Virus record (IMG/VR): IMGVR_UViG_3300035698_018106
Coordinates: 294,717-322,902 of that record
Strand: one strand, 5' to 3'
Source of the DNA: a virus
Length of the DNA: 28,186 nucleotides
Shown here: positions 62 to 28,186 of the stretch, piece by piece
Numbering within the stretch: the stretch's first letter is position 1
Layout of the letters: every line of letters starts with the position of its first letter
Notes under the pieces: generated by a model
Databases searched by the model: none
The model's input: the letters and a program-made list of their open reading frames with translations, nothing else
What the model was told of the DNA's origin: nothing
Program-made: the position numbers and the translations under genes

Positions 62-700
62 TTATATAGTATTTAATTCATCCTCTATGTTATGTTTAGC
101 ATGATCACTCTGTGTATTCTGATATAGGTTGGTATGATATATATGTTCTTTATTATTCATAAATTGTAAAAATTTCTTTCTACCATCATAAAAATCTTTA
201 TCAGATTGCATATGAAATTCTTTTCTAATTAATCTAGTAATTTCTGATTGATCATTTATAAATAATCTTAAGTCTAAATCACATATGATATCTTCTATAT
301 AAGTTTGAGGTTCTCCTTTATGAGATGTAACTAATATTAACCATTTGCTTATATTAATATCAGATTCTTTAAAATCTAAAGCAATCATAAAATCTTCTAA
401 TTTTTGAGCAGATTTAGCTTCATTATCAGATTTAGATGGATCATATATAATATCATGAAACCAAACAGCCCATTTCAATAATATTCGATCTTTATGAGAC
501 TTAAATTTAAAATCCCTGACATGTATTAACATGTCTTCTATATGTACCAAAGTGTGATAATATCTATCTTTTGTATAAGATGTATATATTATCTCATCAT
601 AATAATAATCAGTAAAATTAGTATCAATATCTAAACCGAAAATTTTAGAAGTAGTTTTAATTAATTCATTCCATCTCCATCTAGGAGGAGCACTTTGCAT
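62..700 (-). CDS. HD-domain metal-dependent phosphohydrolase
   Basis: H..H (YHTLVHIEDMLIH) and HD (WFHDIIYDP) motifs spaced as in the HD superfamily; 212 aa. Confidence 0.6.
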   Translation of the reverse strand: MQSAPPRWRWNELIKTTSKIFGLDIDTNFTDYYYDEIIYTSYTKDRYYHTLVHIEDMLIHVRDFKFKSHKDRILLKWAVWFHDIIYDPSKSDNEAKSAQKLEDFMIALDFKESDINISKWLILVTSHKGEPQTYIEDIICDLDLRLFINDQSEITRLIRKEFHMQSDKDFYDGRKKFLQFMNNKEHIYHTNLYQNTQSDHAKHNIEDELNTI

Positions 701-1270: not shown

Positions 1271-1972
1271 TTAAATTTTAGTCTTTGGTATAAAATCTAA
1301 GATTAATCCAATATTAGCCATATTTGTTATATTCATATTTAATTCTCCTTCTTTAAGAATTTTTCTTAAATGTGTCACAAATACATCTAATGATCTACTT
1401 ACAAAATAATTAGATGTTTGCCACACTTTTTCTAATATGATATCTTTTTTAACTACTGTTGAGAAATTAGCAGCTAATAATTCAAATACACTAGCTTGTT
1501 TAGGCGATAATTGTTTAATAAGTATACCATTTTTAGATATAAGTCGTTTTGTTGGATCATATGTACAATCTCCAAATTCTATAATATCTCCCATCTTCGC
1601 TGTTAATCTAGCAAGTATTTCGAAATTATTATGATACATATATACATTATGTAACATAACACTTGCTAAATAATCTGTATCTGTTTCTTTAGTATAAGGA
1701 ATAATCATATCTGCAGATGATTTCTCATATTTTTCTAATCTAGATATTACAATTACTGGTATATAGTTGTAATATTTTTTTATAAATTCTATAACTTTAG
1801 GCGCATATTCTAAATCTCCATTTATTATATAGGCATCTGCTTTTTCATTGTCAATGGTATCCAATAAGGTTTTTTCAAATTTAACTATAGATATAGTATG
1901 ATTATCCTTTTTGGCTCCTCTAATGATAGAATTAAGAATTTTGTAATTTCCAGAGTTAACGGCTATTTTCAT
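1271..1972 (-). CDS. atypical OmpR/PhoB-family response-regulator-like transcription factor (winged-helix trans_reg_C domain plus a degenerate receiver-like N-domain)
   Basis: C-terminal 100 aa align position-by-position with the OmpR DNA-binding domain (FG...L..LSPKQASVFELLAAN....V.KD.ILEKVW.....S.RSLDVFVTHLRKIL.....I.....GL.LDF). The N-domain keeps the receiver S/T and K but replaces the acidic pocket (KILVVDDD becomes KIAVNSGN). Confidence 0.8.
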   Translation of the reverse strand: MKIAVNSGNYKILNSIIRGAKKDNHTISIVKFEKTLLDTIDNEKADAYIINGDLEYAPKVIEFIKKYYNYIPVIVISRLEKYEKSSADMIIPYTKETDTDYLASVMLHNVYMYHNNFEILARLTAKMGDIIEFGDCTYDPTKRLISKNGILIKQLSPKQASVFELLAANFSTVVKKDIILEKVWQTSNYFVSRSLDVFVTHLRKILKEGELNMNITNMANIGLILDFIPKTKI

Positions 1973-4882: not shown

Positions 4883-5049
4883 CTTTTATTATTTTATAAT
4901 TAGTTTTACATTCTATTAAAGCATATGATAACAGTGTCACACTAGGATTAATAATGTGAGTATTACCATACAAAAATTGAAGAGTATATTGATCTTTTAA
5001 TGCTCCTTGTGTATTATATGAAAAAGAGAATATACAAGTTTCATCTTTA

Positions 5050-5247
5050 TCAGATTTTTTTTGGAAAAGCTTTAATAATTACATCTAACATACCTTCTCC
5101 ATCTTCCCTTCCACCAAAATCTATTTCAGAGAATTGGATACCACCTATAGTTGATAAATCTAAACTATTTCTATACGTTTCAAAATTTTCATCCTCTATA
5201 TAGTCTTCAATAATCTGAAGACTTAAATCAAAATCTTTTTTATTCAT
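5050..5247 (-). CDS. small acidic hypothetical protein
   Basis: 65 aa ORF, ATG start. Confidence 0.4.
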   Translation of the reverse strand: MNKKDFDLSLQIIEDYIEDENFETYRNSLDLSTIGGIQFSEIDFGGREDGEGMLDVIIKAFPKKI

Positions 5248-5351
5248 ATTGTTAATTTATTTAAACCAATAAATTTTATTATCTACTTTTAAATCATTAA
5301 TAAATTCTAAATATGTTCGGGATATGGGTTCGTTTTTCATATTTTAAATAT

Positions 5352-5385
5352 AACTAAAAAAGTCGAGACTAAAAAATCTCGGCTT
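5352..5385 (-). terminator. intrinsic-terminator-like hairpin + T-run (minus sense AAGCCGAGA-loop-TCTCGACTT then TTTTTTAGTTA)
   Basis: 9-bp stem with one mismatch, 9 nt after the NTase gene stop; run of 6 T in the gene sense. Confidence 0.5.
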
Positions 5386-5393
5386 GAATTAAA

Positions 5394-6017
5394 TTATCTT
5401 TTTAACATTTCAATATAATTATCTCGTAGATATAAAAAATTACTAGGCTTAAAATTTATATCATCAACAATTTCTTTAAACAAATGATTTGCCTCATCAA
5501 ACACCATTATTTTTTGATATTTTTTCATTTGTATACCAAATATTAATATTCTAATAGCATGCCAAATACCCTTCTTAACAACTAAACTTATTTCTTCACT
5601 ATCTTTTTCAATTACCCATCTTTTATCAGCTATATGCCAACTATTAGATGATTGTGTGATAACTTTTTTAATAAGTTCTTTCTCGTAAAATTTGTTTATC
5701 TTAAAATTGAATTTTTTCTTTATAATTTGATCATCATCCAAAGATATTGCTTCTAATGCTGGCATCATATAATTATTAATAGCATCAATAAACCCACCTT
5801 TACTATAAGGTGTGCCTTGGATTGATTTACTATGGTTGCTTACTGCATTATCTTTAAATGAACCGCTACGTAATAAAGATGTTTTGAAAACTATTATATA
5901 ATCATCATCAGAATCTTCTCTATTAGTTCCATATACTTTAGAACCATACGGATATATATTCCATATGTCATCTATATCAAAATTTAATTCCTTACAAATA
6001 TATTCTGGTGTATACAT
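5394..6017 (-). CDS. nucleotidyltransferase-fold protein (NTP_transf_2 / Pol-beta superfamily)
   Basis: N-terminal YGSKVYGTNREDSDDDYIIVF matches the GS-x9-13-DxD signature (consensus FGSYARG....SDIDLLV). Confidence 0.6.
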   Translation of the reverse strand: MYTPEYICKELNFDIDDIWNIYPYGSKVYGTNREDSDDDYIIVFKTSLLRSGSFKDNAVSNHSKSIQGTPYSKGGFIDAINNYMMPALEAISLDDDQIIKKKFNFKINKFYEKELIKKVITQSSNSWHIADKRWVIEKDSEEISLVVKKGIWHAIRILIFGIQMKKYQKIMVFDEANHLFKEIVDDINFKPSNFLYLRDNYIEMLKR

Positions 6018-6019
6018 TA

Positions 6020-6445
6020 TTAGCTTTGTTTAATTAGATATCCTTTAGAAGCTTTAAATATAGTATACCATATATCTTGATATTTAAAAGTAACTTTATC
6101 TAATGAAAATTCAGATACTTCTACATAATCACAATATAATAATTTTACTTCGCCAGCGCCATAAACGCCTGGAGGAATATGTCCCTCAAAATCTTTATAT
6201 TCCCATGGGTGGTCTTCGGTTTGTATTACCATTCTGACCTTCCCTCTTTTACTTGGAAATTCATGTTTAGGTATAACATAAGAACGAAGTACTTTGCCTT
6301 CTGTGGTCACTACTGGTTCACTAGTAGTATCTAAACGTTTCGTTAAATATGTTTCTATATCCCCACCATCTTCAAACCGGACATCCCAATGAAGTCCGGC
6401 TTTAAAAGCATGATGTTCTTGTATAACTAATAGACGTTTATCCAT
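6020..6445 (-). CDS. LigD-type 3'-phosphoesterase domain protein (polynucleotide 3'-phosphatase/3'-ribonuclease, stand-alone)
   Basis: VIQEHHA..LHWDVRFE ... RSYVIPK ... VIQTEDHPWEYKDFEGHIPPGVYGAGEV matches the LigD PE-domain hallmarks (QKH.A..LHYD.RLE, W.VPKGP, VEDHPLDY.DFEG.IP...YGAG). Confidence 0.75.
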   Translation of the reverse strand: MDKRLLVIQEHHAFKAGLHWDVRFEDGGDIETYLTKRLDTTSEPVVTTEGKVLRSYVIPKHEFPSKRGKVRMVIQTEDHPWEYKDFEGHIPPGVYGAGEVKLLYCDYVEVSEFSLDKVTFKYQDIWYTIFKASKGYLIKQS

Positions 6446-6639
6446 TATGTATAATGTCTTTGATTAAAATCTCCACCAGGTTCTAATATATTATAGCCAT
6501 CATATGAATTACCAGCTTGGAGAATTAATTCAGCAAATGTAGCAACAGCTTCTTTTTCTTCATCAGTTAAATCTTTTCTCATTGACTTATTCAATTGAGC
6601 GATAATAACATCTCTTCTAATAGTTTTTCTTAATGCCAT
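6445..6639 (-). CDS. small hypothetical protein (64 aa from the first ATG; the track's 6654 start is a TTG)
   Basis: the track ORF begins at TTG (caa 6652-6654); the first in-frame ATG is cat 6637-6639. Confidence 0.4.
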   Translation of the reverse strand: MALRKTIRRDVIIAQLNKSMRKDLTDEEKEAVATFAELILQAGNSYDGYNILEPGGDFNQRHYT

Positions 6640-6641
6640 TC

Positions 6642-6911
6642 TTAATTCTCCCAATTACTTGTACGTAAAAAAGCATTTAATGCTTTATTTTCTTCTCTGA
6701 AAAATCCAACTTTTCTACCTGATTCTTCTTCATACCAAATAGGCTTTCCGGATAATTCAAACACATCACCAGTATGTCTAAATAATTCTTTAACAGGCTT
6801 ACTACCAAAAAACTTTGCAAAATTACTTGGATGGCGTTTTACTGTTATAACAGTATGTTTACCTATTTCTTCTTTATATACAAATTCAAGACTTCCTATT
6901 TTACGTTCCAT
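6642..6911 (-). CDS. hypothetical protein (89 aa from the first ATG; the track's 6950 start is a TTG)
   Basis: an ATG at 6909-6911 gives an 11-nt overlap with the upstream stop; a TTG at 6950 would overlap by 50 nt. Confidence 0.45.
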   Translation of the reverse strand: MERKIGSLEFVYKEEIGKHTVITVKRHPSNFAKFFGSKPVKELFRHTGDVFELSGKPIWYEEESGRKVGFFREENKALNAFLRTSNWEN

Positions 6912-7104
6912 TATAAATCCCTTCTTTTTTATTTTTTTTAATTTGTTCAATAGCTGATAACGAAAATGTCGACATTCTTTTCCAAAAATCTAAAGATTGA
7001 TTTCCGGTTAATACTCGAACAGCATTTCCAGCATCTTTTTCAACTATTAAATCTATACCACCAATACCATTTTTAGTTGTATCAATTACTTTTTTTCTTG
7101 CCAT
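6901..7104 (-). CDS. small hypothetical protein
   Basis: 67 aa ORF, ATG start. Confidence 0.4.
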   Translation of the reverse strand: MARKKVIDTTKNGIGGIDLIVEKDAGNAVRVLTGNQSLDFWKRMSTFSLSAIEQIKKNKKEGIYNGT

Positions 7105-7106
7105 GA

Positions 7107-7472
7107 TTATTGAATGTTATGTTTTAATAATAATTCTTTTGCTTCTTTTAGTCTTTTTTGTAATCCCGGATCGTTTATAACAGGAGCCGCTTTTTTCTTC
7201 ATACTAGCTATAGTTTTTCTTCCAAGTTGTTCAAGTTCTTTAGCATCTTGCTTTAAAACTCCTTTAACATCTACACCTTCAAAAGAAGAAGCATATGTGT
7301 GTGATACATCAATAGAAGCATCTGTAAGTGCTTCACTAAATTTAGTACCATCTTCCATTTCAGCATCCATTAATGCAGAAGCCATGGCTCCACCAACAAC
7401 TACAACTAGTCCAACTATTATAAAGAAAATAGTTCCTTTTAAAACGAATCCAATAAGTTTAATTAAAAACAT
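7107..7472 (-). CDS. membrane-anchored protein (N-terminal TM helix)
   Basis: 121 aa; IFFIIVGLVVVVGGAMASAL hydrophobic segment; first gene after cassette copy a. Confidence 0.5.
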   Translation of the reverse strand: MFLIKLIGFVLKGTIFFIIVGLVVVVGGAMASALMDAEMEDGTKFSEALTDASIDVSHTYASSFEGVDVKGVLKQDAKELEQLGRKTIASMKKKAAPVINDPGLQKRLKEAKELLLKHNIQ

Positions 7473-7490
7473 AATTTTTTAATTTTGATT

Positions 7491-7552
7491 TAAGTAAATA
7501 TAACCATTTACATCAACAGTAAAAAATTTTAAATGTTAAAAAATGTTAATTA
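7491..7552 (-). promoter_or_regulatory. promoter cassette copy a (core + TGTTAA direct repeat)
   Basis: TAAATATAACCATTTAC...AAATGTTAAAAAATGTTAA; about 20 nt upstream of ATG 7472. Confidence 0.5.
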
Positions 7553-7894
7553 ATCTTTAGATGTATTAAATAGTTGTCTTAATTCCTTTGCTTTGATAAA
7601 CAAATATTTAATCATTTCATCATAAAAATCAGGGACGGATTTCATCTTCGAAATCATTTTATCATTATAAGGATTTAATTCAACAACTGTATTACCCGCA
7701 TGTACATAAATAGTCCAATCATCAGCATGTCTTTGTTTTTGAACTTTGGCGACATTACATGAAGAACCTATACCGATTTCACCACCATTACCGTTCAAAA
7801 TAGTTTTGACTAGTTCATCTATAAATTCTTCTTTATTATCTTCTATATCATGTAGATTATCATGATATATGGTTACAGTTGTTAAATATCCCAT
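7550..7894 (-). CDS. hypothetical protein
   Basis: 114 aa ORF; last gene of the ABC-ATPase/kinase block. Confidence 0.5.
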   Translation of the reverse strand: MGYLTTVTIYHDNLHDIEDNKEEFIDELVKTILNGNGGEIGIGSSCNVAKVQKQRHADDWTIYVHAGNTVVELNPYNDKMISKMKSVPDFYDEMIKYLFIKAKELRQLFNTSKD

Positions 7895-7900
7895 AATATA

Positions 7901-8158
7901 TTATTTTACATCATTAAAATTTAGTGTATCAGATTTAACTTCTGACCTTCCGGCGTTAAAATCTTTTTGAAAAGATTCAAATACTTTTCCAGTATCCTTT
8001 ATCAAATTATTCTCTTCAGTAGAATAATATTTAAACACATATACTACACTCCAAATAAAAGCGGCTAATAAACTTAGTTGTATTAATACCATTACCAAAC
8101 CTCCTATTATACTTGTTTTAATTATGCTTTTATTAAACGTTTTGTGAAAATTTTTCAT
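7901..8158 (-). CDS. small membrane protein
   Basis: 85 aa; TM segment IIGGLVMVLIQLSLLAAFIWSVVYVF; ATG 1 nt after the kinase stop. Confidence 0.45.
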   Translation of the reverse strand: MKNFHKTFNKSIIKTSIIGGLVMVLIQLSLLAAFIWSVVYVFKYYSTEENNLIKDTGKVFESFQKDFNAGRSEVKSDTLNFNDVK

Positions 8159-8159
8159 T

Positions 8160-8561
8160 TTATCTTAATTTAATATTAAATCGTTTCTCCATTTTTTCTA
8201 ATGTTTCTATAGGCACATTATGTATGTCAACACCATTATGTCTATTTTCAACAACTATAGAATATACTTTATATCCATATTTCTTTGCTAAATCATAATA
8301 AGGTTTCAATTCTCTTTCAGTTGTAGAAGTATTAGCTACACATATTTTTGGTAAACCATGCTCCATAGCTCTTTTTGTTTCAGCTTGACACCATGCATGG
8401 GCTTCACCTATCTTATCAAGAGACCAATTATAATTACCATCTTTATCAGTAAAATAATCATCAGCAGATAACACCTGTTGAGATATTAAATTAGCAAATG
8501 AGGTTTTACCACATCCAGGCACGCCCCGGACCATTATAAGATCCTTAATTTCTTCTTTCAT
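8160..8561 (-). CDS. polynucleotide 5'-kinase (kinase domain only), T4 Pnk-like P-loop kinase
   Basis: IMVRGVPGCGKTSF (Walker A), LSADDYF and CVANTSTTERELKPYYDLAKKYGYKV...NRHNGVDIHNVPIETLEKM parallel the T4 Pnk kinase domain (TIGCPGSGKST / NRDDYR / SDTNLNPERR...EYGWKV); no phosphatase domain, 133 aa. Confidence 0.8.
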   Translation of the reverse strand: MKEEIKDLIMVRGVPGCGKTSFANLISQQVLSADDYFTDKDGNYNWSLDKIGEAHAWCQAETKRAMEHGLPKICVANTSTTERELKPYYDLAKKYGYKVYSIVVENRHNGVDIHNVPIETLEKMEKRFNIKLR

Positions 8562-8573
8562 TATATAATATTA

Positions 8574-9293
8574 TTAAATATTTTCTAAATAATCCTTTGA
8601 TTGTATCCATTCCATAATTTCGATATCGAAAATTAAATCTATATTTTCGATAAATACTTTTGAATGGGTAATAATTATGATATCCTTTTTTAAAGATACT
8701 AATTCATTTAAATATTTTTTTTGATTCTTAAGAGATAATCCTTGTTCAGGTTCATCTAATATTAGCAAATCAAAATCTAAAGATATTATACTTTTTAAAA
8801 CACCTTCCCTTGTTTCTCCATGACTTTCTGCAACCCACATAAATTGATTTAATATTTCAGGAGCTGAATAAGTAATACCTTTTTGAGGATCGGGTTTTGA
8901 CACAGCTGGATTTATTTTTTCCATATCAACTAATAAAACTTCTTTATTTTGCAAAGAAGTTTTATTATTTTCAATTAATAAACGAATTAAAGTAGATTTA
9001 CCTACTCCATTATCGCCCACTATAATATTAACACCTTTTTTTAATTCAAAGGTATCCCCTTTATTAAAAAGCTTTTTATAATCAAATGTTTGTGTAACTG
9101 TTCTTTCTTTTTTTGTTAAAATAGGTCTTCTACCATTTCCTAATTTTAATTTCTTTACTTTTACATCAATAGCTTGAGATAATTCTCTTCCTTCAAGTTC
9201 AACTTTTTTTGTTTTTGAAAAGATATCCTTCCTCATAGGAGAGTAATCTTCTGTTACATCAATTATATAATCTTTTTTAAACGTAATCTTCAT
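8574..9293 (-). CDS. ABC-type (SMC/AAA_21-like) ATPase
   Basis: Walker A GDNGVGKST, degenerate signature ESHGE, Walker B/D-loop LLILDEPEQGLS, H-loop IIITHS; about 80-aa N-terminal extension. Confidence 0.65.
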   Translation of the reverse strand: MKITFKKDYIIDVTEDYSPMRKDIFSKTKKVELEGRELSQAIDVKVKKLKLGNGRRPILTKKERTVTQTFDYKKLFNKGDTFELKKGVNIIVGDNGVGKSTLIRLLIENNKTSLQNKEVLLVDMEKINPAVSKPDPQKGITYSAPEILNQFMWVAESHGETREGVLKSIISLDFDLLILDEPEQGLSLKNQKKYLNELVSLKKDIIIITHSKVFIENIDLIFDIEIMEWIQSKDYLENI

Positions 9294-9463
9294 TATTCTA
9301 GAATTTGTATACCATTAATATTAAGTGAGTAATTTTCAGCAATACACCAGGATATGATCTCCTGATCATTTGCATTATCAAAGAAACAATCTCTAAATTG
9401 ATCTCTTGTCCCGAGGAAAATATAACCCTCTTCTACTTTTATACAACATTCAGAATATTCCAT
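9293..9463 (-). CDS. small protein (56 aa, MEYSECCIKVEEGYIFLG...) translationally coupled to the ABC ATPase
   Basis: hand-translated ORF below the track's length cutoff; its TAA overlaps the ATPase ATG (TAATG). Confidence 0.35.
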   Translation of the reverse strand: MEYSECCIKVEEGYIFLGTRDQFRDCFFDNANDQEIISWCIAENYSLNINGIQILE

Positions 9464-9603
9464 TAAACTAATTTAAATGATTCATTTTTAATTTCTTCTA
9501 CATCTACCTTTATTAACTAAAGATGTTTTAAAATCTCCTTTTTGTCCTATAGGTAAATAAGCTGAATTTTTCATATTTTGATATATGTGGCATAATGTAT
9601 TAT

Positions 9604-10790: not shown

Positions 10791-10860
10791 TAATTATAGT
10801 ATAAATATAACCATTTACTTTAAGAGTAGAAAATATTAAATGTTAAAAAATGTTAAAATT
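10791..10860 (-). promoter_or_regulatory. promoter cassette copy c
   Basis: ATAAATATAACCATTTACTTTAAGAGTAGAAAATATTAAATGTTAAAAAATGTTAAAA; the stop of 10853-11794 sits inside the second TGTTAA. Confidence 0.5.
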
Positions 10861-11794
10861 CAATTTCTCCTACAATCGTTTTATTGCTCCATCCTCCAAT
10901 ATTAACAATTGAAGTTTCTAACTTACATCTAAAGTTTTCGTTTACAAACTCATATGCCTTGGAATTAATATTTTCTTTTGTATTTGCTAAGTATATACCA
11001 GTATGACTATCTTTTTGTATTATAATATCAGTTTCAACTGGATGAACATAGTGGAATGATAATTCAGGGGATGTTACAGGTATTTGATTGTTTTTATAGT
11101 AAGAAGAATTATAATTGCGATGATTTTTAGATTTATAAATCATTTCTTTAATTATTTCTTTATTATTAAATAGATTTGAATCATCATATAAATCTATTAA
11201 ATCTTTAATTCTTTTATTAGAAATAGGGAAAGATAAAATATCCCATAATTTACCTTCTTTACAAGCAAAAAAAGCACGCCGAGGTGTTTCTAATGTTAGA
11301 TGATAAGTATAATCATGATTGTATTTAACTATAATATTTTTTTGATACCAATTACCAAGATAAACCATTTCTAATCCATCTTTACATTGAGCACCTTTAT
11401 ACCAATGGCCAACTATGGCTTTAGAAATAGGAATAATATCACCCTTTTTATTTTCTAATTCTTCTTCTTTATAAAGAAGATCAATATATTCTGTATCTAA
11501 CGTCCTAATCAATTGCATTTGATGGTCAACAATATTTTCAACAAATGTAATTTCATCTTCAATTACACCATGTGTAATTGATAATCTAGTAAGTGGTAAT
11601 TGATCAAAATCTACCCAAATTTGTCTTGGTAAATATTCATGATCTATTAGAAATCCTAATTTACTATAATCAATAATTTTTAAACCTGCCATTGGTTCAT
11701 TATTAAAAGGTATTGTACCTTTACCACCAGACATTCTAATTCCGCTGCCAATGTAAGCTTTTTTAAGTAATTTTATACTACATGTATTTTCCAT
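10853..11794 (-). CDS. hypothetical protein (313 aa)
   Basis: longest ORF in the window, ATG start, preceded by a type-2 cassette (11798-11835). Confidence 0.55.
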   Translation of the reverse strand: MENTCSIKLLKKAYIGSGIRMSGGKGTIPFNNEPMAGLKIIDYSKLGFLIDHEYLPRQIWVDFDQLPLTRLSITHGVIEDEITFVENIVDHQMQLIRTLDTEYIDLLYKEEELENKKGDIIPISKAIVGHWYKGAQCKDGLEMVYLGNWYQKNIIVKYNHDYTYHLTLETPRRAFFACKEGKLWDILSFPISNKRIKDLIDLYDDSNLFNNKEIIKEMIYKSKNHRNYNSSYYKNNQIPVTSPELSFHYVHPVETDIIIQKDSHTGIYLANTKENINSKAYEFVNENFRCKLETSIVNIGGWSNKTIVGEIEF

Positions 11795-12270: not shown

Positions 12271-12872
12271 ATTTTATTTTTTTTAATGTCAAAATATTCT
12301 TCTGATAATACTTTTACTGGTTCGGTCACACCCATTACCCAAACTCCTGGTAATACATTTTCATCATATTTAAACCATTCTGGAGTTTCAATAACATCAT
12401 GAATAGTACCTTTAATTAAATTTTTAAATTCCAGAGAAAACCCTGTAAAATTTCCAATCATTATTTGATGACCGGTTTTTAAAGGGATATATGTTTTTCT
12501 ACATATAATATTAATGTCTTTATTTTCTAATTCCCCTTCATGTAGAAATATAATGTCATTTTCTGGATATTTATCTGAAACAATCTTCCTTATTTCTTTA
12601 TCATCATCATTAAAACGAGTTGTACTATCACCTATTTTATAAGGATTTGGACATTTTCCATCCTTATTATTAAGCATTCTAACTTCCTTTTTATTAGTTA
12701 AAATACGTTCAAGATCTTCGCCTTCAATAAGATTAGGTAAATCATTTTTAACTAGATCATACACACTTAGAGATGTTTCAATCTCAAATAATTTTACATA
12801 TACATGCATGGCATCGCTAGAATAACCAATCCATGATGTTAAATTTGCAATAATTTTTTTGGTATTATCCAT
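12267..12872 (-). CDS. hypothetical protein (201 aa)
   Basis: ATG start, unidirectional array. Confidence 0.5.
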   Translation of the reverse strand: MDNTKKIIANLTSWIGYSSDAMHVYVKLFEIETSLSVYDLVKNDLPNLIEGEDLERILTNKKEVRMLNNKDGKCPNPYKIGDSTTRFNDDDKEIRKIVSDKYPENDIIFLHEGELENKDINIICRKTYIPLKTGHQIMIGNFTGFSLEFKNLIKGTIHDVIETPEWFKYDENVLPGVWVMGVTEPVKVLSEEYFDIKKNKI

Positions 12873-12881
12873 GGATATTAT

Positions 12882-13310
12882 TTAAATATGAATATTTCCT
12901 ATTGGCTTACACGCGGAATATTCAGGATTAGCTATCTTAAAACATTCAAGATTTGAATTTGCATATAAAGTATTTTCTCCTCTCCAATCGCGTTTGTTAG
13001 TAGAGTTAACAAAGATTGCCTTTTCTACATTATTATTTTTAGCAATTACATCTTTAGACCTTTTAATAAGTCTTGTATATGTTGCTAATTCCTTTCGTTT
13101 TGTTGGTCCATGATTAGGAAATACTTCATTCATACCATATAACCATTCATCATTTGCCATTACTTCGGCTCTTGGATATTCTCCATCACTGATATCCATC
13201 GCATCTGATAATATCTTTCCATCTGGACAATTACCAACTTGAACATAAACGGCTATTTCTTCTCCTTTAAATGATTGTATTGCATATAATCTATATAAAT
13301 AAGCGCCCAT
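12882..13310 (-). CDS. hypothetical protein (142 aa)
   Basis: ATG start. Confidence 0.5.
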   Translation of the reverse strand: MGAYLYRLYAIQSFKGEEIAVYVQVGNCPDGKILSDAMDISDGEYPRAEVMANDEWLYGMNEVFPNHGPTKRKELATYTRLIKRSKDVIAKNNNVEKAIFVNSTNKRDWRGENTLYANSNLECFKIANPEYSACKPIGNIHI

Positions 13311-13314
13311 ATCT

Positions 13315-13656
13315 CTATTGTATTTTAATTAGTTTATAAATTAACATATCTTCTTTGATCATTTTATGTATTCTGTTTGTATCAGATAAAGGGATTGATA
13401 TATTATACCACACCTTCATAAATTTACCACTATCGTTAAAAAACATAATATCTACAGATTCTTTTATAATATTTTCTGTATCTGATATAATATTTACAGA
13501 TATATCGTCGTATAAATTAATACTTTGTATTTTATTATATGTATTTTCATTTTTATAAATATCATTAGTATACGCCGGAAATACAATAAGTATAAACAAA
13601 CTAATGGCTATTATAAGACTAAATACTGCTATAAAAAATTCTATTCTTCTATTCAT
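13315..13656 (-). CDS. membrane-anchored protein
   Basis: N-terminal FFIAVFSLIIAISLFILIVF hydrophobic anchor; 113 aa. Confidence 0.45.
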   Translation of the reverse strand: MNRRIEFFIAVFSLIIAISLFILIVFPAYTNDIYKNENTYNKIQSINLYDDISVNIISDTENIIKESVDIMFFNDSGKFMKVWYNISIPLSDTNRIHKMIKEDMLIYKLIKIQ

Positions 13657-14036: not shown

Positions 14037-14581
14037 GACTTATGATTTATAAATTTTTCTCCGTGATAATTAGTTACATAAATTTCTGGTATATAAGGTT
14101 TTCTCATTAAAAATGCTCCTGGCATTATTAAGTTCTTACTATCTACAAAATAATAAGAAGATGTTCTTTCATATACCATTGTAACTCCACCAAAATGATA
14201 ATTAAATGATCTATATTTTATTGATATGTTAAATTTATTATCAATCTCTACAAAAAATATCGGATACTTTTTGGTTCCGGCTTCATATACAAAGTTACCA
14301 TTTGAATCTTTACCTCTCCATGGAGATATCAGAAATGGTCTGATTGTACCATCTATATTAGGATAATGATACTTATTAAAAAAGAATTCATATGAATCAG
14401 AGTCACTAGAAAGATTAACAGCTATTTCTTGGTCAAGAAAATATTGTAATACTTCTTTTCTTAAAGGTTGATCTTTTTTCTCATGACTTAAGACTCCATA
14501 AAGCCATATAAGATATTCCATTGGAAGCGTATCCAATCTATCCCCTTTATATGTTCCCCATTTCATCTTATGATATTCCAT
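14033..14581 (-). CDS. hypothetical protein (182 aa)
   Basis: first gene after cassette copy d; ATG about 10 nt past the cassette. Confidence 0.5.
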   Translation of the reverse strand: MEYHKMKWGTYKGDRLDTLPMEYLIWLYGVLSHEKKDQPLRKEVLQYFLDQEIAVNLSSDSDSYEFFFNKYHYPNIDGTIRPFLISPWRGKDSNGNFVYEAGTKKYPIFFVEIDNKFNISIKYRSFNYHFGGVTMVYERTSSYYFVDSKNLIMPGAFLMRKPYIPEIYVTNYHGEKFINHKS

Positions 14582-14589
14582 ATATTTTT

Positions 14590-14658
14590 TAATTATAGTT
14601 AAATATAACCAAATTTACATTAAGAGAACAATTGCAAATGTTAATAAATGTTAATTGT
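14590..14658 (-). promoter_or_regulatory. promoter cassette copy d
   Basis: TAAATATAACCAAATTTACATTAAGAGAACAATTGCAAATGTTAATAAATGTTAA. Confidence 0.5.
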
Positions 14659-14686
14659 ATCACCTTTATTATATTTTCCTATAGAA

Positions 14687-14893
14687 TCAACAAACCATAT
14701 TGCATTTCCCCCCAATCCCATTTGTCTGTATATAATACCAACATAAGCCATCAGGTGTCCCATCTTTATTATTAATATTTTGAATGGTTATCATATCCGG
14801 TTTATTATTTACAGCATTATCACCAGAATTTCCTGGACCATAACAACTTGATAATAAAATCAATATTATGCTAATAGTTAATAATTTTTTCAT
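14687..14893 (-). CDS. putative small lipoprotein (68 aa from MKKLLTISIILILLSSC; the track starts 10 codons earlier at 14923)
   Basis: lipobox LSSC after an h-region; the 14893 ATG removes the 20-nt overlap with the upstream gene. Confidence 0.4.
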   Translation of the reverse strand: MKKLLTISIILILLSSCYGPGNSGDNAVNNKPDMITIQNINNKDGTPDGLCWYYIQTNGIGGKCNMVC

Positions 14894-14903
14894 AAGATTT
14901 GTT

Positions 14904-15236
14904 TTAAATTTGACTTCCATCATTAAATTCTTTTATTGCTTGATAGCTTATATCTTTTAATCTTTTTAGTAAATCTCCTTCAGGATTATCTATTTCATAT
15001 TCAACACCGCCTTTAATTAATGAAAAATATTTAACATCTCCACCTTGTATACACCATTGAATAATTGGATAATTATTATCTATACATTGATAATGTCCTT
15101 TCCCTTCCGGAACAGAAGAACACCAGATAAATCCGATTGAATCTTCTTCATCATAAGTATACTTTAAATTAAAAACATTTACTAAATGTTTAGATAATAT
15201 TACAGCAATTTGTGCATCAGTAGCTTTTGATTTCAT
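14904..15236 (-). CDS. hypothetical protein (110 aa)
   Basis: ATG start. Confidence 0.45.
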   Translation of the reverse strand: MKSKATDAQIAVILSKHLVNVFNLKYTYDEEDSIGFIWCSSVPEGKGHYQCIDNNYPIIQWCIQGGDVKYFSLIKGGVEYEIDNPEGDLLKRLKDISYQAIKEFNDGSQI

Positions 15237-15242
15237 AGTGGT

Positions 15243-15524
15243 TTATTTAATATTCATTCCTGTTATACAATCAGCCTCGCCAATCATAGAATATTTATCA
15301 TCCGCCCCTTGTAAGCTAATAATAAAATTATCTTTGGTATAAGTAGAGATTTTAAGAATCTCATAAGATTCTTCTTTTAATTGTTTAACTTTAAATACCT
15401 TTTGTGGCATAGCATAAGCATAATTATTTTTAATAGGTACTAATTTCTTACCTATGTAATTACCTTCAAATAATTCACCAATTGTAATTCCTGATGTAGC
15501 CCACTGTTTATTTTTCTTTGCCAT
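15243..15524 (-). CDS. hypothetical protein (93 aa)
   Basis: ATG start. Confidence 0.45.
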   Translation of the reverse strand: MAKKNKQWATSGITIGELFEGNYIGKKLVPIKNNYAYAMPQKVFKVKQLKEESYEILKISTYTKDNFIISLQGADDKYSMIGEADCITGMNIK

Positions 15525-19391: not shown

Positions 19392-19455
19392 TAGTTAAAT
19401 ATAACCAAATTTACTATAAGAGAACAATTTTAAATGTTAAAAAATGTTAAAAATT
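19392..19455 (-). promoter_or_regulatory. promoter cassette copy h
   Basis: TTAAATATAACCAAATTTACTATAAGAGAACAATTTTAAATGTTAAAAAATGTTAAAA. Confidence 0.5.
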
Positions 19456-20271
19456 AGTATATTGTTTAAGGGCAGCTTTAATAGTATCCATTGAAAAAGA
19501 CTTTCCATCAATCTCAATACTTGTATCACTTCTATTAACAACTTCTTCTGATGTTATTTTCTTAAATAAACTATTATTAACATAACATATTGTATTTTCA
19601 TTATAATGAAGTGCTAATGCGCAAATATTGTTAGTTTGATTCTTAACATACTTAATTGATGTAGGTGATTGAGTAATAGCTGCCATACAAATTTCTTCAG
19701 ATTGTTGTTTAACATATTGTAACATCTGTCCATTTATCTTTACTGCTACTAAACAAACTTTATCAAAATGTATATGAATATACTTTAATGCCGTAGGTGA
19801 TTGAGTAACTGCAACCATACAAATTCTAAGTGATTGATTTCTAACATATTGTACTGCATTCCCATTTTGTTCAACTGCTGCTAAACATATCTCCTCAGTT
19901 TGCTGATGTACTAAACATAATAGTAATCCATCTTGTTTAACGGCGGCCAAACAATTATCAAGTGTTTGTATAATAACATACTTAAAAGCATTACTATTTT
20001 GTTTAATAGCTTCTAAACAAATCTCTTCAGTTTGTTTCTTTACATATTGTAAAGCATTTGTATCTTTTCTAACAGCTGCTAAACAAATCTCTTCAGTTTG
20101 CTCATCTACAAACGTCAATGCTCCGCTATTCGTCAGAACAGCCATCATAGCCTCTCCACCAGTCAAATCACATTTTGGACCAGCATATATATAATGCTTA
20201 TCTCTATAATTTTTTAAGTGCTTAGGGCAATTTCTATTAAAAGTATCTTGCAAATGAGTTTGTTTTAACAT
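19447..20271 (-). CDS. 22-aa tandem-repeat protein (DUF4116-like), paralog 1
   Basis: about 9 repeats of EQTEEICLAAV[KR]QNG.ALQYVK plus the conserved tail IEIDGKSFSMDTIKAALKQYTNF; its stop lies inside cassette h. Confidence 0.6.
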   Translation of the reverse strand: MLKQTHLQDTFNRNCPKHLKNYRDKHYIYAGPKCDLTGGEAMMAVLTNSGALTFVDEQTEEICLAAVRKDTNALQYVKKQTEEICLEAIKQNSNAFKYVIIQTLDNCLAAVKQDGLLLCLVHQQTEEICLAAVEQNGNAVQYVRNQSLRICMVAVTQSPTALKYIHIHFDKVCLVAVKINGQMLQYVKQQSEEICMAAITQSPTSIKYVKNQTNNICALALHYNENTICYVNNSLFKKITSEEVVNRSDTSIEIDGKSFSMDTIKAALKQYTNF

Positions 20272-20627: not shown

Positions 20628-20698
20628 ATTTTATAATAGTTAAATATAACCAAATTTACTATAAGAGAACAATATTAAATGTTAAAAAATGTTAAAAA
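20628..20698 (-). promoter_or_regulatory. promoter cassette copy i
   Basis: TTAAATATAACCAAATTTACTATAAGAGAACAATATTAAATGTTAAAAAATGTTAAAA (near-identical to h). Confidence 0.5.
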
Positions 20699-21309
20699 CT
20701 AATATATTGCTTAAGTGCAGCTTTAATAGTATCCTTTGAAAAAGTCTTACCATCAATCTCAATCTCATTATTTTCTTCTTTAAACATATCTTCCTTTACA
20801 TATTGTAATGCACGCACATCTTGTTTAACAGCTTCTAAACATATCTCTTCAGTTTGCTCATTAACATAACGTAAAGCATGACCATTTTGTCTAACAGCTT
20901 TTAAACATATCTCTGGAGTTTGTTCTAATACATATTGTAATACAAATCCATTTTGTTTAATTGCTACTAAACACATCTCTTCAGTTTGCTCTTTTACATA
21001 TTGTAATGCATCCCCATCTTGTTTAACTGCTTCTAAACATATCGCTTCAGTTTGCTCTTTAACATAACGTAATGCATGACCATTTTGTTTAACTCCTGCT
21101 AAACATATCTCTGGTGTTTGCACCCTTACATACTGTAATGCATGACCTTTTTGTCTAACTGCTTCTAAACATATCTTTTCAGTTTGCTCATTAACATAAT
21201 GTAATACATAACCATCTTCTCTAACAGCTTCTAACGCTGCATCACCAGTTAAATTACATTTATCTTCTAACTTATCATAATCACTTTTATAATCTTTCAA
21301 ATCTTTCAT
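20692..21309 (-). CDS. 22-aa tandem-repeat protein (DUF4116-like), paralog 2 (start at MKDLKDYKSDYDKL; the track's 21333 start is a TTG)
   Basis: about 8 repeats and the tail IEIDGKTFSKDTIKAALKQYISF; the N-terminus matches paralog 3; its stop lies inside cassette i. Confidence 0.6.
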   Translation of the reverse strand: MKDLKDYKSDYDKLEDKCNLTGDAALEAVREDGYVLHYVNEQTEKICLEAVRQKGHALQYVRVQTPEICLAGVKQNGHALRYVKEQTEAICLEAVKQDGDALQYVKEQTEEMCLVAIKQNGFVLQYVLEQTPEICLKAVRQNGHALRYVNEQTEEICLEAVKQDVRALQYVKEDMFKEENNEIEIDGKTFSKDTIKAALKQYISF

Positions 21310-21360
21310 TATCCTTTTTTTCATTATATTCAAATATATCTATAATCTATCACAATATAA

Positions 21361-24267: not shown

Positions 24268-24326
24268 GTAAATATAATTAATATTACTATAACAGAAAAA
24301 TATTAAAAGTTAAATAAAGTTAAAAT
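24268..24326 (-). promoter_or_regulatory. degenerate cassette k (AGTTAA-N4-AGTTAA)
   Basis: AAATATAATTAATATTACTATAACAGAAAAATATTAAAAGTTAAATAAAGTTAAAA. Confidence 0.35.
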
Positions 24327-25294
24327 GATTTATTTACATCTATTTTTCTTTCAAAAGATAGTAAAGCGTTTTTAATATATTCATGAGGATATTCATTACC
24401 TTCGAAAATAATAGCAGATTGTTTTGGGAACATGTAATTATTAACATACATTAATGCTTTTATGTTTTGTTTAACAGCTCCTAAACATATCTCTTCAGTT
24501 TGTTCTTTAACATAACGTAATGTTTCTCCATCTTGTTTAACAGCAGCTAAACATATCTCTTCAGTTTGCTCTAATATATATTGTAATGTATTACCATTTT
24601 GTTTAACAGCTCTTAAACACATCTCTTCAGTTTGCTCATTAACAAATTGAAATGCATTACCATTTTGTTTAACTGCTTCTAAACATATTTCTTCAGTTTG
24701 CTTCTTAACATAACGTAATGCATAACCATTCTTTCTAACAGCAGCTAAACATATCTCTGGAGTTTGCTCATTTACAAAACGTAATGCATAACCATTCTTT
24801 CTAACAGCTTCCATACACATCTCCTCAGTTTGCTCAATTTGCTCATTAACATATTTTAATGCATAACCATTCTTTCTAACAGCTTCTAAACAAATCTCCT
24901 CAGTTTGCTCTTTAACATAGTATAATACAAATCCATGTTGTCTAACTACTTCTAAACATATCTTTTCAGTTTGTTCTTTAACAAATTGAAATGCATTACC
25001 AATTTCTTTAACTGCTTCTAAACATATCTCTTCAGTTTGTTCTTTAACATATTGTAATGCTAAACCATTCTTTCTAACAGCTTCCATACACATCTCCTCA
25101 GTTTGCTCATTTACAAAACGTAATGCTTCATTATGTTGTTTAACAGCTGCTAAACAAATCTCTGGAGTTTGTTCCTTAACAAATTGTAATGCGTTACCAT
25201 CTTGTTTAACAGCTTCTAACGCTTCTTCACCAGTTAAATTACACTTGTTCTTTAACTTATCATACTTACATTTATAATCTTTCAAATCTTTCAT
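24320..25294 (-). CDS. 22-aa tandem-repeat protein (DUF4116-like), paralog 3, longest (324 aa)
   Basis: about 12 repeats; divergent C-terminal tail; its stop lies inside cassette k; preceded by cassette l. Confidence 0.6.
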   Translation of the reverse strand: MKDLKDYKCKYDKLKNKCNLTGEEALEAVKQDGNALQFVKEQTPEICLAAVKQHNEALRFVNEQTEEMCMEAVRKNGLALQYVKEQTEEICLEAVKEIGNAFQFVKEQTEKICLEVVRQHGFVLYYVKEQTEEICLEAVRKNGYALKYVNEQIEQTEEMCMEAVRKNGYALRFVNEQTPEICLAAVRKNGYALRYVKKQTEEICLEAVKQNGNAFQFVNEQTEEMCLRAVKQNGNTLQYILEQTEEICLAAVKQDGETLRYVKEQTEEICLGAVKQNIKALMYVNNYMFPKQSAIIFEGNEYPHEYIKNALLSFERKIDVNKSF

Positions 25295-27733: not shown

Positions 27734-28186
27734 TTATAAAAATAGATCCTCTTTAACATACTTTAATGCTTTTATGTTTTGTTTAATAGCAGCTAAACAG
27801 ATTTCTTCAGTTTGTTCTAATACATATTGTAATGCATAACCATTTTGTCTAACTGCTTCTAAACATATCGCTTCAGTTTGTTCTTTAACATATTGTAATG
27901 CAGAAGCATGTTGTTTAACAGCTTCCATACACATCTCCTCAGTTTGCTCATTTACATAACGTAACGCTTCTCCATTTTGTCTAACAGCAGCTAAACATAT
28001 CTCTTCAGTTTGCTTTTTAATAAATTGTAATGTATGACCGCTATGTTTAACAGCTTCCATACACATCTCCTCAGTTTGCTCAGTTTGCTCATTAACATAT
28101 TTTAATGCATAACCATTTTGTTTAACTGCTTCTAAACAAATCTCCTCAGTTTGTTCTAATACATATTGTAATGCTAAACCATTTTG
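27734..28186 (-). CDS. 22-aa tandem-repeat protein (DUF4116-like), paralog 4; 5' end lies beyond the window; C-terminus cut short by an in-frame TAA
   Basis: the frame stays open from 28066 to the window end (..QNGLALQYVLEQTEEICLEAVKQNGYALKYVNEQTEQTEEMCMEAV..); the conserved tail KVEIDGKTFSKNTII is in frame but 3' of the TAA at 27734. Confidence 0.5.
   Translation of the reverse strand, partial: QNGLALQYVLEQTEEICLEAVKQNGYALKYVNEQTEQTEEMCMEAVKHSGHTLQFIKKQTEEICLAAVRQNGEALRYVNEQTEEMCMEAVKQHASALQYVKEQTEAICLEAVRQNGYALQYVLEQTEEICLAAIKQNIKALKYVKEDLFL

Follow-up and report, generated by a model that had tools for sequence, protein, structure and literature searches.

The 28,186-nt stretch of DNA analysed here (positions 294,717 to 322,902 of the IMG/VR virus record IMGVR_UViG_3300035698_018106; hereafter the window) carries, all on the minus strand, the genes of a stand-alone Pnk-type 5'-OH polynucleotide kinase of 133 aa (8160..8561), a stand-alone LigD-PE-type 3'-phosphoesterase of 141 aa (PE; 6020..6445), a short RlaP-like nucleotidyltransferase of the Pol-beta fold with 207 aa (NTase; 5394..6017) and an HD-superfamily phosphohydrolase of 212 aa (62..700). 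We propose that the first three form a dispersed polynucleotide end-repair set, probably for RNA, in which the kinase would heal the 5' end, PE would heal the 3' end and NTase would rebuild the latter, with a ligase encoded elsewhere in the genome; we give this explanation about an even chance of being correct. An earlier, sequence-only reading of this DNA had joined all four proteins into one end-healing toolkit, and its overall interpretation was partly supported. The kinase was assigned from Pfam, profile, fold and context, PE from Pfam, catalytic residues and fold, NTase from its motif, its family hidden Markov model (HMM) and its neighbours, and the HD protein from PHROG 19425 and its HD residues, with a Pfam score below the cut-off.

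The kinase scored 40.1 bits against Pfam AAA_33 (curated cut-off 27), and its matches among the PHROGs were PHROG 2071 'ATPase' (2e-42) and PHROG 505 'polynucleotide kinase' (2e-6). A family profile built from 30 sequences reached T4 Pnk (1ltq) at 1.5e-5 over T4 residues 1-141, which is the kinase domain only, and also matched Capnocytophaga Pnkp1 (1.3e-4), the kinase domain of CthPnkp (6.5e-4) and PSTK. Congruently, Foldseek ranks 1-20 for the AlphaFold2 model of the kinase (predicted local distance difference test, pLDDT, 90.5) were all CthPnkp and T4 Pnk. The P-loop reads G13-x-x-G16-x-G18-K19-T20, with G16, G18 and K19 invariant in the family; the invariant D34 corresponds to the T4 Pnk general base D35 in the profile alignment, and an ENRH lid motif carries the nearly invariant R107, which aligns to T4 R122. 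On the other hand, T4 R38 and D85 are not conserved; F37, N77 (invariant) and V111 align to T4 R38, D85 and the lid residue R126, and the family may bind its substrate in a mode different from the T4 type. The JGI names, which make this protein a uridine or dNMP kinase, were rejected, as the fold, the profile matches and the neighbours indicate Pnk. No phosphatase domain is fused to the kinase, the only candidate being PE at a distance of 1.7 kb, and there is no ligase in the window; the claim of the sequence-only reading that the protein parallels the kinase domain of T4 Pnk alone was thus upheld.

The genomic neighbours of the kinase family are those of RNA repair enzymes. Relatives of the kinase occur in >503 IMG/VR loci, of which the best 80, equivalent to 54 families at 80% identity, were analysed; neighbour counts refer to +/-10 kb around the gene unless another distance is given. 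An RNA ligase of the Rnl1 or Rnl2 type accompanies the kinase in 36 of the 54 families, against a rough background of 1/24 RlaP-locus families and 0/31 PE loci. A calcineurin-type metallophosphoesterase (MPE) of ~217 aa is found in 29/54 families, and an MPE, a cRec or a HAD-SAK in 37/54; moreover, in 37 of the 80 loci no more than 600 nt separate the MPE from the kinase. The genes of the cultured Escherichia phage ukendt are arranged as phosphoesterase (gp195), RNA ligase (gp194) and 'ATPase' (gp193), the last being the kinase homologue. On account of these MPE and RNA ligase counts and of the ukendt gene order, we assign to the kinase family the 5'-healing part in a split RNA repair cassette of the CthPnkp-like kind. 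Such cassettes, present in Phapecoctavirus and in many uncultured phages, share with the window the kinase family and the arrangement of a stand-alone kinase with a separate 3'-phosphoesterase gene, whereas the window kinase lacks an adjacent metallophosphoesterase or ligase and has an ABC-type ATPase gene upstream and PE 1.7 kb downstream.

We also observed that the ~130-aa 'ATPase' of PHROG 2071, found in Phapecoctavirus and in many cultured phages, is a Pnk-like kinase homologue that stands in a three-gene cassette, for example in L274 (NC_052661.1 87233-89123; L numbers denote individual loci). To judge from sequence, this 'ATPase' is probably the polynucleotide kinase of a phosphoesterase/RNA ligase/kinase cassette, and it could be re-annotated as such.

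Phage RNA repair, exemplified by T4 Pnkp and Rnl1, is the textbook counter to host anticodon nucleases. T4 Pnkp (PseT) with Rnl1 and the set proposed here have in common a Pnk-type P-loop kinase with a catalytic Asp and the logic of healing 5'-OH and 3'-phosphate ends before ligation. They differ in that the window kinase stands alone without a HAD phosphatase domain and has F37 and N77 in place of R38 and D85, that the candidate 3' healer is a LigD-PE beta-barrel rather than a HAD enzyme, and that the window has no Rnl1. The T4 HAD domain, used as comparator in the sequence-only reading, turned out to be a poorer choice than the split CthPnkp-like cassettes and the fusions of Pnk with a 2H cyclic phosphodiesterase (CPD) domain that are seen in phages. 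The latter resemble the Trl1-type kinase and 2H CPD of fungi and plants; the HMM of the phage fusion was matched by the window kinase at 1e-24, which makes the kinase domains homologous, although the window kinase is without the CPD domain.

PE reached 50.8 bits against Pfam LigD_N (PF13298; cut-off 31.1), which bears out its earlier assignment as a stand-alone LigD-type 3'-phosphoesterase; the NCBIfam model LigD_PE_dom matched at 1.3e-16, under its equivalog cut-off. A phmmer search with PE found CkoPE (3p4h) at 1.2e-17, as well as MbaPE and PaeLigD PE. The AlphaFold2 model (pLDDT 94.5) superposes on 3p4h with a TM-score of 0.83 (normalised to 3p4h), and at E<=1e-3 Foldseek retrieved solely the PE structures 3p4h, 3p43 and 5dmp, together with 2lj6 at E 1.0e-3. 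Among 26 sequences the catalytic residues H11, H19, D21, R23 and H79 are invariant and Y83 is present in at least 90%; Q9 and S55 are likewise invariant. The essential residues of PaePE are H42, H48, D50, R52, H84 and Y88 (roles in PMC3082917, PMC8656161), and the window PE shares the fold and the six catalytic residues with the LigD and archaeal enzymes (CkoPE 3p4h, MbaPE 3p43, PaeLigD PE 3n9b). Like CkoPE it is compact, without the disordered peptide found at the N-terminus of PaeLigD PE. In contrast to those enzymes it is viral, it is found among RNA-repair-type neighbours and outside any Ku, LigD or POL context, and it has an insertion of ~25 aa at about residues 27-50, after the HxDxR strand, which is common to most of its clade. 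By sequence and model, PE is a genuine stand-alone LigD-type 3'-phosphoesterase, and its predicted activity is that of the superfamily, a Mn-dependent 3'-phosphomonoesterase that also resects 3' ribonucleosides.

The clade to which PE belongs is known from viruses and metagenomes only. A tblastn search of 50,697 GenBank phage records gave no hit, and there was no match in the PHROGs; a large protein database contained 89 homologues, nearly all of them stand-alone proteins of ~140 aa from metagenomes, and IMG/VR contained 17 PE loci. When one genome from each of 185,579 bacterial and archaeal species was searched, the closest sequence had 40% identity, and no segment exceeded 43%. Since the cellular matches are distant and the homologues are mostly from metagenomes and IMG/VR, the clade looks virus-specific.

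The window NTase scored 16.7 bits against PF01909, under the cut-off of 21. The GS...DxD motif (G25-S26, D37, D39) is invariant in its family, of whose members 24/28 match PF01909 and 25/28 match PF18765. The window protein had no match to the RlaP family PF10127 at E<=1, and 5/28 family members matched it weakly, with a best E of 0.019. The NTase family HMM in turn matched RlaP (PF10127) proteins in most of 80 RlaP loci, at best with 1.6e-12, and the alignment took in HMM positions 22-130 and 138-181, which cover the core, the helical region that follows it and the C-terminal 'FHalRil' region. Because the family HMM aligns beyond the generic GS/DxD core, we consider NTase to be a short relative of RlaP. 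The two share the core, a helix region 'F..ai..n...lE.iF.P' and a C-terminal 'K..fHalRil.fG', whereas NTase has about half the length (207 vs ~370-430 aa) and is missing the middle ~190 residues. The earlier call of a nucleotidyltransferase accordingly stands, by the motif and the 24 PF01909 matches, but its generic PF01909 label gives way to the specific RlaP-like one. RlaP adds 1-2 nucleoside monophosphates to RNA 3'-OH ends, an activity known only for PfRlaP and PaRlaP, and T4 also encodes a member of the family, NrdC.11 (PMC12776372).

The context of the NTase family was studied in 82 IMG/VR loci (69 distinct; 57 families at 80% identity). RNA ligases occur beside 13 of the 57 families, to be set against the rough background of 1/24 RlaP-locus families. 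Within 4 kb, the 69 distinct loci contain an Rnl1 ligase in 11 cases and a kinase-2H CPD fusion in 8, at a median distance of 300 nt, and the fusion genes stand directly upstream of the NTase family genes. Further recurrent neighbours within this distance are a CCA-type enzyme, NUDIX, DNA ligase, SmpB and HAD-SAK, and in two further contigs a cRec lies beside NTase or three genes off. The RlaP and NTase families have in common that both neighbour RNA ligases and end-healing enzymes. The possibility that NTase is an MntA-type antitoxin was discarded in view of a weak match (E 0.03), the lack of a HEPN partner and the RNA-repair context of the family. GIY-YIG endonuclease genes were seen close to NTase in several of the IMG/VR loci.

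The position of PE connects it with these families. In the window the PE start overlaps the preceding open reading frame (ORF), and NTase begins 2 nt past the PE stop. In L025/L026 (~65% identity) a 4-nt overlap joins PE to NTase and the kinase lies 2 kb upstream, while in L039 PE begins 3 nt past the kinase stop and RlaP follows 5.5 kb downstream. In the T4-like loci L006 and L028/L029 PE overlaps an MPE of the kinase-neighbour family (E 1e-29), with a NUDIX gene next in line. Directly beside PE we thus see three different partners, the kinase, an RlaP-like NTase and an MPE, each independently tied to RNA-end processing, and for this reason the coupling-type spacing (0-4 nt) with three partner families in three lineages is unlikely to be due to chance. 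PE also occupies the kinase's usual phosphoesterase-partner position, in L039 directly. The claim that PE acts in trans, as a non-orthologous replacement, fits these comparative data, in which the kinase is accompanied elsewhere by MPE, 2H CPD, cRec or HAD-SAK and in L039 by PE. The NUDIX genes beside the PE-MPE pairs are only generically similar to those near the kinase, and the ~210-aa genes that follow PE in L005 and L006 were rejected as window-type NTases, the one directly after PE in L006 being a metallophosphoesterase.

RlaP is carried by the relatives L033, L039, L048 and L054 and by L027. Downstream of RlaP in L039 we found no ligase; the genes present encode TnpB, an AAA protein, a 5'-3' exonuclease, a glucosaminidase and another HD protein. 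Locus L027 is syntenic with the window and has, a few kb beyond the HD gene, a Thg1-like gene (12816-13538) and a full-length RlaP (14539-15508). Thg1-like proteins are 3'-5' polymerases, a family to which tRNA 5'-end repair enzymes belong. Both genes stand just beyond the point of L027 that matches the end of the window; in the genome of the window, ~1.1 kb of sequence beyond the HD gene could be recovered through exact-protein matches (contigs of <=7.7 kb), and it held no informative genes.

Several observations weigh against an RNA repair set and must be set beside the above. Among the 31 PE loci none has an RNA ligase within 10 kb (0/31), so that the link of PE to RNA repair is second-order and the RNA substrate is one that we infer; the RNA-repair setting claimed in the sequence-only reading held, as guilt by association, for the kinase and NTase and did not extend to PE. 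In accordance with that reading, no ligase was found in the window by Pfam scans of 50 ORFs and custom ligase HMMs, and the window has neither tRNA genes nor Rfam matches. In L006 and L028/L029, PE and its MPE sit between DNA polymerase B and UvsX/gp41/gp46-47-like genes, that is, in a DNA replication and recombination module, and ATP-dependent DNA ligases are found joined to PE in the distant viral loci L016, L020 and L022. All characterised PEs, moreover, are DNA end-healing enzymes that act on DNA or ribonucleotide-ended DNA (PMC3082917, PMC3258152, PMC8656161); our literature search returned no record of PE activity on all-RNA or 2',3'-cyclic-phosphate ends, and no work joining a LigD PE with cyclic phosphates or phage RNA repair.

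These findings are the basis of the main rival explanation, which we rate as possible, if unlikely: PE would act on DNA, cleaning 3'-phosphate or ribonucleotide ends of the phage genome (primer remnants, embedded ribonucleotides, nuclease- or radical-damaged ends) before the DNA ligase or polymerase of the phage acts; 5'-OH ends of DNA might be phosphorylated by the kinase, and the proximity to RNA repair genes would be incidental. It has to contend with the partners that PE abuts, as the kinase, NTase and MPE all come from families enriched beside RNA ligases, and with the preferences of CkoPE, the closest solved relative, which favours single strands and chiefly clips a 3' ribonucleoside. 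Furthermore, neither in the window nor in its close relatives L025, L027, L039 and L277 did we find a Ku, a LigD ligase or a POL domain. With Ku and LigD absent, a role of PE in non-homologous end joining was rejected as well.

A second group of observations concerns the cohesion of the set. About half of the distinct PE lineages are without any of the partner genes named above, L275, L276 and most IMG/VR PE loci among the loci that lack them. NTase is missing beside PE in both L027 and the likewise syntenic L277, PE itself is absent from L048 and L054, and none of the 82 NTase loci has a PE within 10 kb. In the window, seven small ORFs and a putative promoter/operator repeat separate the kinase from PE, and the kinase and PE/NTase may be two transcription units, the second of which probably ends, as far as its sequence tells, at a terminator-like hairpin on the minus strand just 3' of the NTase stop codon (5364..5381); this hairpin comes from a consensus scan alone, which gave 2 sites vs 1.1 expected. 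Such variable content, together with the ORFans that form the majority of the 50 ORFs scanned against Pfam and PHROG, would be explained if the region were a hypervariable accessory one of shuffled small genes with no joint function, where the kinase may have a ligase and a phosphoesterase encoded elsewhere as its partners and PE, NTase and the HD protein would act separately, for example to degrade or modify nucleotide second messengers of host defence; phosphodiesterases of jumbo phages are often proposed to be counter-signalling enzymes (PMC7824862). We regard this as distinctly unlikely, given the coupling-type spacing of PE with members of three families in three lineages and an active site built for polynucleotide 3' ends.

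Mobile endonucleases may drive gene shuffling in this region. A TnpB/IS605 OrfB-type gene with a Cas12f-like TNB domain lies between PE and the winged-helix gene in L039 (5380-6600), and the region upstream of the kinase in L027 has a TnsA-like/NUMOD3 gene.

The HD protein is the one member of the earlier toolkit whose inclusion was not supported. Bacterial end-healing fusions of HD and Pnk domains exist, such as Runella HD-Pnk. The window protein scored 17.3 bits against Pfam HD (PF01966), under the cut-off of 22, and matched PHROG 19425 'phosphohydrolase' at 6e-31; its H...HD...D motif (H49, H53, H82-D83, D141, D143) is invariant in 25 sequences. The family is very large, with 7,739 cluster representatives, and in some of its members the protein is fused to a PPAT-like nucleotidyltransferase or to unrelated domains. 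The solved structures nearest to it, YedJ and BH2835 (E ~0.004-0.008; YedJ 0.004), are uncharacterised. The family is present in 1/80 kinase loci and 0/82 NTase loci, once in 162 in all, and in the window its gene lies 5.3 kb from PE with 11 genes in between. These properties speak against a four-enzyme kit in which the HD protein would open 2',3'-cyclic phosphates, PE would remove the phosphate, the kinase would treat the 5' end and NTase would extend the 3' end, and we hold such a kit to be very unlikely. The points in its favour are that the HD gene is syntenic in close relatives, in L027 and L033 with the kinase, PE and the winged-helix gene, and that HD-like phosphatases appear in a few RNA-repair sets of jumbo phages (PMC7824862). 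We therefore describe the protein as a generic HD hydrolase, whose part in end healing is not supported for want of a recurrent RNA-repair context.

Returning to the proposed set of kinase, PE and NTase, its steps would be as follows. The 133-aa kinase would phosphorylate 5'-OH ends; PE would then heal the 3' end by removing a 3'-phosphate and/or by clipping the 3'-terminal ribonucleoside to leave a 3'-phosphate and then a 3'-OH; the short RlaP-like NTase, which is translationally adjacent to PE, would add 1-2 nucleotides to the 3'-OH; and the break would be sealed by a ligase whose gene lies outside the window. The substrate would most likely be RNA, for example host or phage tRNA cut by defence ribonucleases. 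In this scheme PE probably fills the 3'-end-healing slot that is held elsewhere by an MPE, a fused 2H CPD, a HAD phosphatase or cRec. The 3'-end healers known so far belong to the HAD, calcineurin-type, 2H, HD and cRec enzymes, and a LigD-type PE in this slot would be a sixth, structurally unrelated solution; it would also provide a testable role for the widespread stand-alone PE proteins outside non-homologous end joining. Phage RNA end-repair kits are known in general, and what looks new is the placement of a LigD-type PE beside a phage kinase and an RlaP-like NTase.

A more specific version, by analogy with the action of the POL and PE domains of LigD on DNA, is that PE and NTase would be an 'add-and-trim' pair for RNA 3' ends, which we consider unlikely. 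NTase would re-add the nucleotides removed by nucleotide-excising anticodon nucleases (RloC-type), and PE would clip a surplus 3' nucleoside; the 3'-phosphate so left would suit an RtcB-type ligase, and the 3'-OH that follows once the phosphate is removed would suit Rnl-type ligases. A trimming step has been postulated by the authors of the RlaP work (PMC12776372), and this would be the one that is missing. If correct, the idea would carry the LigD-PE superfamily beyond DNA repair, into phage RNA repair and counter-defence, and the close pairing of PE with an RlaP-like adder would bear on how excised nucleotides are restored in damaged tRNAs.

As to its setting, the window has an overall G+C of ~27%, and ORFs of at least 50 aa are nearly all on the minus strand throughout. 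Positions 5000-9500, searched with megablast and blastn, had no DNA relative among GenBank phages, save for patches of ~115-165 nt within kinase homologues. Besides the kinase, PE, NTase and HD genes, the recognisable ones are those of four DUF4116 repeat proteins, an ABC-type ATPase and an OmpR-like winged-helix protein. We read the window as an accessory region of early type from the genome of a large, uncultured, low-GC phage.

The window also has a tandem direct repeat of ~19 nt with a 10-bp period, AAATGTTAA-W-AAATGTTAA, present in 13 copies of one orientation against 0.09 expected. The copies start at 7531, 10167, 10838, 14636, 15808, 17675, 18488, 19432, 20677, 21367, 25359, 26383 and 27645, the first of them (7531..7549) being the one between the kinase and PE/NTase sub-blocks. 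The copies that were checked against the ORF table are all intergenic or lie over a stop codon, and the next start on the minus strand follows a few tens of nt downstream of them. The repeat is a candidate phage promoter or operator. Proteins of the OmpR/PhoB type bind direct repeats of 10-bp period. The OmpR/PhoB-like winged-helix protein of the window (1271-1972, minus strand; Trans_reg_C 1.7e-11) has the Bacteroidota-type RprY and PhoB as its best NCBIfam matches and a divergent, receiver-like N-terminal half. Its gene is the one most consistently kept between kinase/PE and RlaP, in L027, L033, L039, L041, L043, L045, L048 and L054.

Finally, some minor features of the window deserve mention. 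The single-domain ABC-type ATPase (8574-9293, minus strand) has an ABC-F ribosomal-protection-like family as its best NCBIfam match, all matches being far under the cut-offs; its gene stops 12 nt upstream of the kinase start, a position that is not kept in L025 and L027. The four DUF4116 repeat paralogues (19447-20271, 20692-21333, 24320-25294 and 27734-28066, all minus strand) have up to nine repeats each, and the DNA of their genes shows a 66-nt tandem periodicity. The GC skew falls to -0.8 at 21.3-21.9 kb, a region nearly free of ORFs, and turns to +0.2 to +0.6 over 22.1-23.7 kb despite the minus-strand ORFs there. A 313-aa ORFan (10853-11794, minus strand), with neither Pfam nor PHROG match, has a 38%-identical homologue near PE in the syntenic L277.

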